Positions 49,113 through 50,929 of a stretch of 64,000 nucleotides of DNA are shown piece by piece. Source of the stretch: Escherichia coli. GTDB lineage: Bacteria > Pseudomonadota > Gammaproteobacteria > Enterobacterales > Enterobacteriaceae. The position numbers were made by a program, and so were the translations under genes. The notes beneath the pieces are model-generated. The model ran no database searches. It was not told where the DNA came from and saw only the letters and a program-made list of their open reading frames with translations. Numbering within the stretch: position 1 is the stretch's first letter; each line of letters starts with the position of its first letter. The stretch lies in assembly GCF_045037415.1 (NCBI RefSeq), contig NZ_CP173438.1. The stretch is one strand, 5' to 3'.

Positions 49113-50225
49113 TTACCTGTCAGTCATCCGATATTCCACGCTATGTGCTTCATCAGGTTGAGGAACTTCCAGCCTTGAGGCCATCCGCATCACGACCGCT
49201 TCAGGAACTGCATACTCGCGTCTGGCATTTTGCTGGTTCCATTGCGCCCATGGCACTTCCAGATAAACGATTTTTACTCGTGCGCCGTAAGCCGTAAACA
49301 GACTGATGAGCTGGCTGCGCAGCTGGCGGGTAATGTTCGTTGCATTCCAGATGAACGGCTTTTTCTGGCGTAAAAAAACGCGCGCCTCTTCTTTTGCCTG
49401 TTGCACAATACGCCCGGTGGCGGTTTTGTCGTCCGGACTGGCATTGATTCGCCGCCGCATATCATCAAGGCTGATAACGTCCATTCCCTGGCACTGTTCA
49501 CTGATATAGCGATCTTTGCCCATACCCGGTAAGCCACACAGCAAAATAACCTCAAAAGGTTCAGCCTCCCAGGGAACAAAATCAGGAGAACTTTGCTCAT
49601 GAGTCAGGTAGTGCCAGCGTGCGGAATCAGAAACGAACGGGCGCATTTTTCCCCAGCATTGTTGCTCATGGCAAAACAGCTCGAACAGATCGATGCGTTC
49701 CAGCATTGATTGCTGATCCGGGCTTTGGCGACCAAGCAGATCGGCACGAGCAAGCAAAGCGAGCAGACGCGTGTCGATGCGCATTGCAGCCGTGAGCAAC
49801 AAACGCTCCGGTTCCGGACGTTCCAGTAACCATAGCGGTAACCCATGCAGACGCACCAGTGCAACAATTTGCTCGCGCAGCACGAACGGCGTTGGGATAT
49901 CGCGCCATAAAATTTGTCGAGCCGTCAGTTCGCCCCGACGAGCATGACCAGGAGACTGAATACGTCCGTTTTCCTGCACGGTAGTGCTGCGCTTTTCAAC
50001 ATCATGCAATAACGCCGCCGCCCATAAAACTTCCTGCTGTTGAGCGGGGAGTTGCTGGAATTCTGGCAGAGTAATGAGGGCGTTAAGCACCATTTCGGTA
50101 TGTACGCCGACGTCGCCTTCACCATGATGCTCAGGGTCTTGTGGCGTGTGATGCATCTCCTCAACCCAGCTAAAACGCTGACGTAGCGCCGACCAGCGTT
50201 TATCGTCGGTAAGTTGCCAAATCAT
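49113..50225 (-). CDS. HD-Pnk-like bifunctional end-healing enzyme: N-terminal HD phosphoesterase plus C-terminal P-loop polynucleotide kinase-like domain
   Basis: 370 aa; HD signature residues ([27 protein letters not shown]) in N-terminal half; P-loop-like GLPGMGKD and downstream WNATN (reminiscent of the DNTN motif of Pnk-type kinases) in C-terminal half; ATGA start/stop overlap with upstream ligase gene. Confidence 0.75.
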
Positions 50226-50929
50226 GACTGTTCTCCATAAACGAACTCATGGGCCATCCGCGCCCGTTGCCAGTGGCGTTTCCAGTGCACAGTGGTTTTG
50301 ACATGATTTTTGCGCACATACTTGAAGACGTTATGCGAAAAGTCAGCGACAGAAAACGCATCATGATTTCGGCTGACAATGCCTTCCAGCGTACAGGGTT
50401 GACAGGTTTGCGTATCCCAGGGATCGAATGTGCCGCGCGCATTGGTCAGCGCCAGAAAATCACGTTGCCAGCTTTTTTCATCATTCCCCGGCTGCGGGCC
50501 GGAGATTTCGGGAACGCAGGGGAAATCAAACAGAGCGGCGTAAAACTGCACCTCTTCCCAGCTCAGCCACATATCCTGGCAGCGAACGGCAAACAGGTAA
50601 AAGTCCTGTTCCAGCGCGCGGTATTCAATGGAATGAACGGCGTAGAGATTTTCACCAAACAACTCCAGGTTGCCGAGATCGTTTTTCAGCAGTTGCCAGC
50701 GTTGGCGAATTTTATAGGTCCATGCCGACTGCGTAGGCGTGGCATGGGAGCGGGCAAACACGCCGTAGCGGTTAAGGCAGTTATTTTCGCCATCGAGTTT
50801 TTCTGTGTGCACCAATTGCGTGATGGTCTGTAAATCCTGCCAGTAATCGGTGTTAATGCGGTCATCGCTGGTGGTGCCTGGAGAGAAGGGGTAATGCCAG
50901 GTTCTCCCGTATTTACGTTGGGTATTCAT
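50222..50929 (-). CDS. ATP-dependent RNA-ligase-family nucleotidyltransferase (minimal ligase)
   Basis: 235 aa; covalent nucleotidyltransferase motifs in order: I KLDG (about residues 44-47), III LFGEN, IV EGIV, V KYVRK. Confidence 0.75.

Follow-up and report, generated by a model that had tools for sequence, protein, structure and literature searches.

A predicted HD-Pnk/LigB heal-and-seal cassette between emrB and luxS of Escherichia coli

Introduction

The HD-Pnk/LigB family of polynucleotide end-repair proteins has been a puzzle since 2007: its kinase and phosphoesterase are active and its ligase becomes charged with AMP, while the substrate that the ligase joins has stayed elusive. HD-Pnk of Runella slithyformis combines an HD-type 2',3'-phosphoesterase with a 5'-OH kinase, and its gene follows immediately on an overlapping open reading frame (ORF) for a putative ATP-dependent ligase, in a cluster that also encodes Tpt1 and a methyltransferase-HIT protein (PMC6097658). 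Here we describe a cassette of two genes, a ligase-like gene and a gene for HD-Pnk, that lies between emrB and luxS in a 64,000-nucleotide stretch of the Escherichia coli chromosome (assembly GCF_045037415.1, contig NZ_CP173438.1), which we refer to throughout as the window and whose first letter is position 1.

The second described system is the operon of Deinococcus radiodurans, which resides on a megaplasmid in the order DR_B0100 (LigB), DR_B0099 (PARG) and DR_B0098. Schmier and Shuman named the last of these HD-Pnk in 2018, in a paper whose title states that it abets resistance to ionising radiation and mitomycin C (PMC6300522). The operon is radiation-inducible, and mutants of DR_B0098 show heightened sensitivity to ionising radiation (PMC6300522, PMC5397189); DR_B0098 is a 5' kinase that phosphorylates a DNA oligonucleotide, and the K40A substitution abolishes adenylylation of DR_B0100 (PMC1997131). 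The PARG encoded between them strips ADP-ribose from phosphorylated RNA and DNA ends (PMC11833690). Beyond this family, Pnkp1-Rnl-Hen1 provides an example of a separate Rnl polypeptide that works only inside an end-healing complex (PMC4411300), and RtcB2-PrfH rescues and re-ligates ribosomes cut by colicin E3 or by contact-dependent growth inhibition (CDI) toxins (PMC9304027, PMC9223846). The statement that E. coli has no polynucleotide kinase (PMC1997131) is true of K-12, although about one complete E. coli genome in five encodes a predicted one. An intact member of this family in tractable E. coli (strain W and clinical sequence type 131, ST131), together with a linkage to rtcB-prfH in other bacteria that we report below, offers a testable ribotoxin-repair hypothesis and a genetic system in which to pursue it.

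A translationally coupled gene pair between emrB and luxS

The cassette and its parts occupy the following positions in the window.

50222..50929, minus strand: ligase gene, ATP-dependent polynucleotide ligase-like, adenylyltransferase domain alone (LigB/DR_B0100 type), from Pfam, PHROG, BLASTP and AlphaFold2 (AF2) fold
49113..50225, minus strand: HD-Pnk gene, predicted bifunctional end-healing enzyme of 370 residues, from Pfam, BLASTP and an AF2 model with a mean predicted local distance difference test score (pLDDT) of 91
49611..50225, minus strand: predicted HD phosphoesterase domain, residues 1 to about 205, from conserved residues, NCBIfam and fold
49116..49562, minus strand: predicted P-loop 5'-OH polynucleotide kinase domain, residues about 222-370, from profile and fold relatives
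50222..50236, minus strand: translational coupling signals GGAG and ATGA, read from the sequence, with overlapping or abutting gene ends recurrent in orthologous loci

In K-12 MG1655, emrB and luxS lie 63 bp apart with no gene in between, and the interval is likewise empty in LF82. In the window, this spacer is replaced by positions 49068 to about 51184, which hold the 235-residue ligase ORF and the HD-Pnk ORF, both as given by the ORF list of the window, and no third gene. The ATG of HD-Pnk (50225-50223) overlaps the TGA of the ligase (50224-50222) as ATGA at 50225-50222, and a GGAG Shine-Dalgarno sequence stands at 50236-50233, 7 nt 5' of that ATG. A first-pass annotation, made from the sequence of the window alone, had taken emrB and luxS to be neighbours in K-12 and had described a 1.8 kb minus-strand operon of two genes with an ATGA start/stop overlap at this place; the K-12 spacing bears out this gene order, MG1655 having neither gene in the interval, and both ORFs are exactly as it described them. 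The spacer of the empty site shares no homology with the flanks of the cassette and hence leaves no definable deletion scar. The two ORFs are not chance ORFs, as judged from sequence comparison, since they have thousands of homologues and ratios of nonsynonymous to synonymous divergence (dN/dS) of 0.08 and 0.15 against E. albertii. A literature search by protein accession returned no paper that mentions either cassette protein.

The ligase is a catalytic core without accessory domains

The upstream gene, which the NCBI Prokaryotic Genome Annotation Pipeline labels 'RNA ligase family protein', matches Pfam RNA_ligase PF09414 over residues 38-205 (E 1.6e-27) and the PHROG RNA ligase family (E 2.8e-31). 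Five nucleotidyltransferase motifs can be read in it, namely I (TEKLDGEN, K44), III (FGENLYA, E93), IIIa (F113), IV (EGIVSR, E182-G183) and V (FKYVRK, K203/K207), and they are invariant in 22 orthologues from two phyla. BLASTP aligns the protein with D. radiodurans LigB DR_B0100 at 34% identity (E 3e-27), with K44 opposite K40, and K44 in TEKLDGEN is accordingly the predicted AMP-accepting lysine.

The AF2 model of the ligase (pLDDT 85.7) forms a single domain whose fold matches are the adenylyltransferase domains of Naegleria Rnl5, Candida Trl1, T4 Rnl2, archaeal Rnl3 and REL1. Identity across the matched RNA ligases is 14-20% (15-20% for Rnl5 and Rnl2), with template-modelling scores of about 0.5 when normalised to the query and about 0.35 when normalised to the target; T4 Rnl1 appears only about 30th, and DNA ligases score roughly 1000-fold worse than RNA ligases. 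The Rnl5 and Rnl2 targets are some 100 residues longer than our protein and their extra domain is left unmatched. Neither Pfam nor the AF2 model of the 235-residue chain contains an OB-fold (oligonucleotide/oligosaccharide-binding) or other nucleic-acid-binding accessory domain, and the fold search found neither the N-terminal OB-like domain of Rnl5 nor the C-terminal accessory domain of Rnl2. Judged from the model, the protein is therefore an RNA-ligase-like catalytic core that stands outside the Rnl1, Rnl2, Rnl3, Rnl5 and Trl1 types, to none of which it can be assigned because it is a core only, lacks the accessory domain and shares low identity with each. A sequence search of the PDB with the ligase gave no detectable relative; hemocyanin, a designed repeat protein and picornavirus VP2 came up and were rejected as spurious.

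Two further conserved segments flank this core. A C-terminal tail, HVKT..HW.RNW.RA, covers residues 205-235 (window 50222-50315), with H209, T212, H215, W216 and W220 invariant and pLDDT below 50 at residues 210-214, and the N-terminus carries KYGRTxHxPxSPGxxxDD. Either segment could contact a partner protein or the substrate.

Relatives of the ligase at 28-44% identity are also present in jumbo phages of Caulobacter, Agrobacterium, Sinorhizobium, Xanthomonas, Ralstonia and Acinetobacter and in metagenomic huge phages (LR756502.1, locus L093; PV764938.1, L094; NC_048048.2, L095; and 24 others). HD-Pnk is never adjacent to the ligase homologue in the phage loci examined.

HD-Pnk retains the predicted catalytic residues of both domains

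The C-terminal part of the downstream gene product matches Pfam AAA_33 clearly (E 1.6e-31, residues 226-355), and its profile and fold relatives are the kinase of Clostridium thermocellum Pnkp (4gp6, the closest solved structure), mammalian PNKP, T4 Pnk and PSTK. Candidate kinase residues are K237 and D238 of the Walker A motif, D254, R257, N294/T296 and R336, among which K237, D254, R257 and R336 are conserved among orthologues and family representatives. Family-wide residue counts were made on 143 representatives, and a search of the representative library gave 562 clusters at E <= 1e-30. The Walker A motif itself, GLPGMGKD (residues 231-238, window 49512-49535), has Asp in place of the usual Ser/Thr. 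Together with Q332, this raised the suspicion of a dead kinase, which we rejected: GKD is the majority form (112 of the 143 representatives, D. radiodurans having GKS), and Q and R are both common at the second position.

Profile matches to the N-terminal part are fainter. Pfam HD is matched weakly over residues 62-139 (E 0.017), NCBIfam HDIG at E 4.4e-4 with 20.1 bits, under its curated cut-off of 27.6, and the HD region of the NCBIfam model of the E. coli CCA addition/repair enzyme at E 1.7e-5. Residue conservation is strong, with H34, H42, H74-D75, K78, H94, H127, D162 and R166 conserved across the representatives and 11 orthologues, and with H34, H42, H74-D75, H94, H127 and D162 each kept in 141 to 143 representatives. 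In the model this half of the protein is all-helical and takes the fold of the body of class II A-/CCA-adding enzymes (3wfp). BLASTP aligns the whole protein colinearly with DR_B0098 over residues 5-361 (30% identity, E 4e-34), and homologues from Bacteroidota, among them Dyadobacter, of Runella's family, share 52-59% identity with it. A protein search with the Dyadobacter homologue had no Runella entry in its top 120 hits. The match of TIGR04075 to HD-Pnk is confined to the kinase region, with 32.7 bits against a cut-off of 750. The catalytic residues for a 5'-OH kinase and a 2',3'-phosphoesterase thus appear intact, and both activities are predicted.

These results agree with the first-pass annotation on the domain content of the cassette. 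The ligase motifs that it had picked out (KLDG, FGEN, EGIV and KYVRK) are all present, the RNA_ligase profile and the Rnl-family fold comparison that it had proposed as checks both returned matches, and its reading of gene 2 as an N-terminal HD phosphoesterase fused to a C-terminal P-loop kinase is upheld by Pfam, NCBIfam, fold and DR_B0098 alignment, with the reservation that the Pfam profiles it had suggested support the kinase firmly and the HD domain weakly.

Comparison with described end-repair systems

By sequence, the cassette is a bona fide member of the published HD-Pnk/LigB family, whose operon structure and phyletic spread have already been published. The first-pass annotation had likened it to the HD-Pnk/ligase pair of Runella, which agrees with what is described for that system (PMC6097658): both have HD-Pnk with an overlapping upstream ligase, a likeness taken from the published description and not from sequence. 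The difference is that Tpt1 and the methyltransferase-HIT protein are encoded nearby in Runella and that none of these is found at the cassette.

Sequence homology was measured to the Deinococcus operon, where both proteins have homologues, the ligase comes first, the ORFs overlap and the HD and Pnk domains are colinear; LigB, too, consists of the adenylyltransferase domain alone. Three differences separate the two loci. The PARG gene that stands between ligase and HD-Pnk in Deinococcus is absent in E. coli, the Deinococcus kinase has a GKS Walker A and R371 where that of E. coli has GKD and Q332, and the radiation-induced Deinococcus operon is borne on a megaplasmid, whereas the E. coli cassette is chromosomal.

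With Pnkp/Hen1 and Pnkp1-Rnl-Hen1 the cassette shares the heal-then-seal logic and a related kinase domain, and with the latter it also shares a ligase on a separate polypeptide. Those systems use a calcineurin-type metallophosphoesterase where the cassette has an HD domain; in Pnkp/Hen1 terms the cassette further differs in that its ligase is not within the HD-Pnk polypeptide and that no Hen1 methyltransferase is encoded beside it, so that a repaired junction would not be 2'-O-methylated and would have no immunity to re-cleavage. The T4 pair of Pnkp and Rnl1 likewise sets an end-healing kinase/phosphatase and an ATP-dependent RNA ligase against an anticodon nuclease, and T4 Pnk is a structural relative of our kinase domain, but the T4 phosphatase is of the haloacid dehalogenase (DxDxT) type and Rnl1 has a C-terminal tRNA-specificity domain, of which the ligase here has none. 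Finally, RtcB2-PrfH is an operon partner of orthologues of the cassette, and both systems handle breaks with 2',3'-cyclic-phosphate and 5'-OH ends. They differ in chemistry, since RtcB joins a 3'-phosphate to a 5'-OH directly with GTP, whereas the cassette would convert the ends to 3'-OH and 5'-phosphate and seal them with ATP.

Related cassettes are linked to rtcB and prfH

We examined gene neighbourhoods in the 80 best species-level loci, which fall into 27 genus-level groups of Enterobacterales and Bacteroidota. In every one of them the ligase gene immediately precedes that of HD-Pnk. RtcB alone recurs as a neighbour in different lineages: 22 loci, from Serratia, Bacteroides/Phocaeicola, Dysgonomonas, Mucilaginibacter, Flammeovirgaceae and one unclassified Bacteroidetes metagenome-assembled genome, have it adjacent and in the same orientation. 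In 13 of the 80 loci, RtcB and the ligase are separated by a release-factor homologue of 200-205 residues, and NCBIfam identifies the two proteins as PrfH (TIGR03072) and PrfH-type RtcB (TIGR03073), both above curated cut-offs. Operons of the form rtcB-prfH-lig-HD-pnk thus occur in Serratia, Bacteroides, Dysgonomonas, Mucilaginibacter and Adhaeribacter, while eight further loci have rtcB-ligase-HD-pnk without prfH. Two loci, L028 and L092, carry the RtcB gene downstream of HD-Pnk, and L028 has a second RtcB-like gene further upstream.

rtcB-linked loci (coordinates within each locus where given): L007/L008 3520-7116; L011 3009-7110; L021-L025, L047, L056, L057, L069, L073, L074, L076, L080

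It is this recurrence, with RtcB adjacent in 22 of 80 loci and PrfH present in 13 of those, that links the gene pair to the repair of ribotoxin-cut RNA. The linkage is unmentioned in the PrfH literature that we covered, which does not extend to the 2016 survey by Burroughs and Aravind, where it may be mentioned. No Tpt1, HIT or PARG gene stands beside the cassette in the 80 loci. Several apparent neighbours were set aside as lineage synteny, namely dnaB-alr-tyrB in Xenorhabdus, a TatD-family gene in Budviciaceae and VanW in Providencia. More distant members of the HD-Pnk family (30-47% identity) are found on megaplasmids of many phyla, where the ligase is not always adjacent.

Proposed role in the repair of broken RNA

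Our preferred reading, to which we would give a probability of roughly 55%, is that the two translationally coupled genes form a self-contained unit that heals and seals broken strands, most probably RNA, such as tRNA or rRNA cut by ribotoxins. By homology, the HD domain would remove 2',3'-cyclic, 3'- or 2'-phosphates to leave a 3'-OH and the P-loop kinase would phosphorylate the 5'-OH end; K44 of the ligase would be charged with AMP from ATP, a step known for two homologues, and the ligase would then seal the healed ends. We further propose that the ligase is active only in complex with HD-Pnk and on particular structured RNA, because it has no nucleic-acid-binding domain of its own. Four points argue for such a complex: the two genes are adjacent in all 80 loci, they are translationally coupled, the HD domain of HD-Pnk resembles the tRNA-binding body of CCA-adding enzymes, and Pnkp1-Rnl-Hen1 sets a precedent. 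The likeliest targets would be tRNA or rRNA cut by colicins, CDI toxins or anticodon nucleases, repaired by a pathway that may operate in parallel to RtcB, whose gene shares an operon with the pair in many other bacteria. Three features favour RNA over DNA as substrate: the ligase has the fold of RNA ligases, the kinase is of the RNA-repair type, and the partners found elsewhere are RtcB, PrfH and Tpt1.

Several observations weigh against this reading. We know of no demonstration of ligation by any member of this ligase clade, and the complex of ligase and HD-Pnk is something that we infer. Among related loci, 58 of the 80 have no adjacent RtcB, and the E. coli cassette itself stands alone, with neither RtcB nor PrfH beside it; in several E. 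coli lineages the cassette is frameshifted or truncated (see below), so that the function must be dispensable. DR_B0100 adenylylates itself at K40 and ligates neither DNA nor RNA (PMC1997131), and the Runella ligase forms the enzyme-AMP and seals none of the 3'-OH/5'-PO4 substrates tried (PMC6097658). Moreover, the only in vivo phenotypes of the family are the ionising radiation and mitomycin C resistance of Deinococcus, which point to DNA (PMC6300522).

The last of these points leads to an alternative in which the cassette repairs DNA strand breaks, with HD-Pnk healing 3'-phosphate/5'-OH DNA ends left by oxidation, radiation or nucleases and the ligase sealing the nicks, a role that has been suggested for the ligB operon of D. 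radiodurans. The Runella HD-Pnk is reportedly also active on DNA 3'-phosphate ends, and both the radiation phenotypes of the homologous Deinococcus operon (PMC6300522, PMC5397189) and the phosphorylation of a DNA oligonucleotide by DR_B0098 (PMC1997131) fit this account. It has to contend, however, with a ligase that belongs to Pfam RNA_ligase and whose nearest folds are RNA ligases, with operon partners elsewhere (RtcB, PrfH and Tpt1) that are RNA enzymes, with a leader that holds no LexA box, the CTG-N10-CAG match there being variably spaced across genera, and with the failure of DR_B0100 to ligate DNA in vitro (PMC1997131). We regard DNA repair as unlikely, though as the strongest of the competing explanations. 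The first-pass annotation had left RNA and DNA breaks side by side as substrates, a hedge that was apt given the tie of the Deinococcus operon to DNA-damage resistance, with the evidence as it now stands leaning towards RNA.

The failure of two orthologues to seal conventional ends in spite of self-adenylylation also raises the question of whether the ligase seals strands at all. It might use its enzyme-AMP for another chemistry, such as 5'-adenylylation or capping, or act on a 2'-PO4/3'-OH end as Trl1-type ligases do, in which case HD-Pnk would prepare or reset that end. The presence of the Candida Trl1 adenylyltransferase domain among the top fold matches, of Tpt1 and a methyltransferase-HIT protein in the Runella cluster (PMC6097658), and of PARG in the Deinococcus operon (PMC11833690) can be read in this way. 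Yet motifs IV and V, which in nucleotidyltransferases serve later ligation steps, are strictly conserved in the ligase; a substrate of the Trl1 type would be destroyed by HD-Pnk, which takes off 2'-phosphates; and no Tpt1, HIT or PARG gene accompanies the cassette in the 80 loci. On balance, a ligase that does not seal strands seems to us distinctly improbable, more so than a role in DNA repair.

A more specific form of the RNA-repair reading would make the ligase and HD-Pnk an obligate complex that adds a second arm, driven by ATP, to the RtcB2-PrfH pathway, for tRNA or rRNA breaks that RtcB cannot join, for example those whose ends have already become 2'- or 3'-phosphates or 5'-OH breaks within ribosomes. 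On this account adenylylation without sealing was seen in two laboratories because the ligase needs both its partner and a specific structured RNA. We advance it tentatively and think it less likely to be right than wrong by a clear measure; if true, about 18% of E. coli, including pandemic ST131 and strain W, would possess an unrecognised immunity to colicin and CDI ribotoxins.

A probably ancestral accessory locus that is maintained in some lineages and decaying in others

The first-pass annotation had suggested a survey of the emrB-luxS interval across E. coli, and this found the cassette in 999 of 5426 complete genomes (about 18%), always as one chromosomal copy at the emrB-luxS site and never on a plasmid. 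Among the carriers are ST131, with 100% identity to the window, O145 and the laboratory strain W, whose copies of both genes are intact. E. albertii and Citrobacter amalonaticus also have the cassette between emrB and luxS, and a scan of species genomes placed it downstream of emrB in eight Enterobacteriaceae species. Synonymous divergence (dS) from E. albertii is 0.22-0.50 for the cassette and 0.25-0.33 for the flanking luxS and emrB, the G+C content equals that of the flanks, and no integrase, repeat or transposase gene is present at the cassette. Because the site is shared by eight species and both dS and G+C content resemble those of the flanks, the cassette is probably ancestral at this site and repeatedly lost, as opposed to recently inserted, and K-12 most likely lost it. 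The earlier description of the operon as additional to the K-12 gene order is thus right as to its presence and wrong if taken to mean a new insertion.

Decay is visible in several lineages. In ATCC 25922 the ligase is frameshifted and HD-Pnk is intact (NZ_CP009072.1 2086874-2088680; locus L107 6875-8681), an O2:K2:H1 strain (L099) carries the same frameshifted ligase allele, HD-Pnk has an internal stop in an O169:H41 strain, and the protein database holds many clusters of truncated copies. It was also in ATCC 25922 that cells without rtcB2-prfH proved more sensitive to colicin E3; as the ligase of this strain is frameshifted, those phenotypes are uninformative on redundancy with an intact cassette.

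These broken copies, together with absence from 82% of complete E. coli genomes, would be expected if the E. coli cassette were a functionless evolutionary remnant on its way to being lost. That explanation fits poorly with the two intact ORFs in the window, which are identical across many ST131 genomes, with the retention of every catalytic residue, with a leader that is conserved across genera, and with dN/dS values that indicate purifying selection, and we rate it as very unlikely. The RNA-repair reading is instead compatible with an accessory locus that is probably ancestral and that about 18% of complete E. coli genomes retain, the others having lost it or showing it in decay.

The same patchy presence and absence, along with the ligase relatives in jumbo phages, could be taken as the mark of a horizontally acquired mobile module for anti-phage defence or counter-defence; phage T4 uses Pnk and Rnl1 to counter the anticodon nuclease PrrC. 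PADLOC, however, has no family that matches either protein at E <= 0.01, the phage homologues lack an adjacent HD-Pnk, and none of the signatures of mobility is present, the cassette having no integrase, repeat or transposase, flank-like G+C content, no plasmid-borne copy in E. coli, and a single chromosomal position shared by eight Enterobacteriaceae species, along with a dS close to that of the flanking core genes. This reading was already disfavoured and strikes us as the least credible of those considered.

Terminators and a conserved leader hairpin

The cassette is delimited by the following elements.

49080..49107, no strand assigned: bidirectional terminator hairpin common to luxS (plus strand) and HD-Pnk (minus strand), from folding energy
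51158..51179, minus strand: intrinsic terminator of emrB, separating the cassette from the emrRAB operon, from terminator scan and fold
50930..51157, minus strand: promoter/leader region of 228 nt, from an alignment of nine Enterobacteriaceae intergenic regions

The shared hairpin folds at -26.3 kcal/mol on the plus strand (z -4.5), where a TTTTGTT run follows it, and at -22.3 kcal/mol on the minus strand (z -3.7). The emrB terminator (-15.7 kcal/mol) is followed by a U run, and its stem is kept by compensatory changes in the nine Enterobacteriaceae sequences. A simple promoter scan of the leader (50930-51157) called no promoter; a candidate sigma-70 promoter would consist of TTGTTT (51134-51129), a 17 nt spacer and TATCTT (51111-51106), and is conserved.

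The leader alignment contains an invariant CCGGT.CTGAGC...CTC.G..GTT and a conserved GTATCTTT. It also contains an invariant hairpin, CCGGTTCTGAGC-loop-GCTCAGGTT, at 51050-51067 on the minus strand, with a loop of 4-6 nt. This hairpin (CTGAGC-loop-GCTCAG, -10.9 kcal/mol) is found some 110 nt 5' of the start codon of the ligase and is kept in the nine sequences despite diverging surroundings. An Rfam search of the leader gave no match, and the hairpin may act as a regulatory RNA structure or be bound by a protein. A LexA box was considered for the CTGAGC-N4-GCTCAG palindrome and rejected, as its spacer differs in length among genera, from 4 nt up to 6 nt.

Other features of the window

Elsewhere in the window, the hycI-hydN interval (about 23445-24604) holds three small accessory ORFs that are annotated in a matching ST131 genome as a hypothetical protein, an HTH-domain protein and an oppositely oriented hypothetical protein. 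They could be a small toxin-antitoxin-like insert, at a position where K-12 presumably carries the asc operon. A tRNA-Ser gene followed by four tandem tRNA-Arg genes occupies 44904-45493; ATCC 25922 has five tRNA-Arg copies at the same place, which indicates that copy number varies between strains. The small RNA MicA is found at 48407-48478, as expected.

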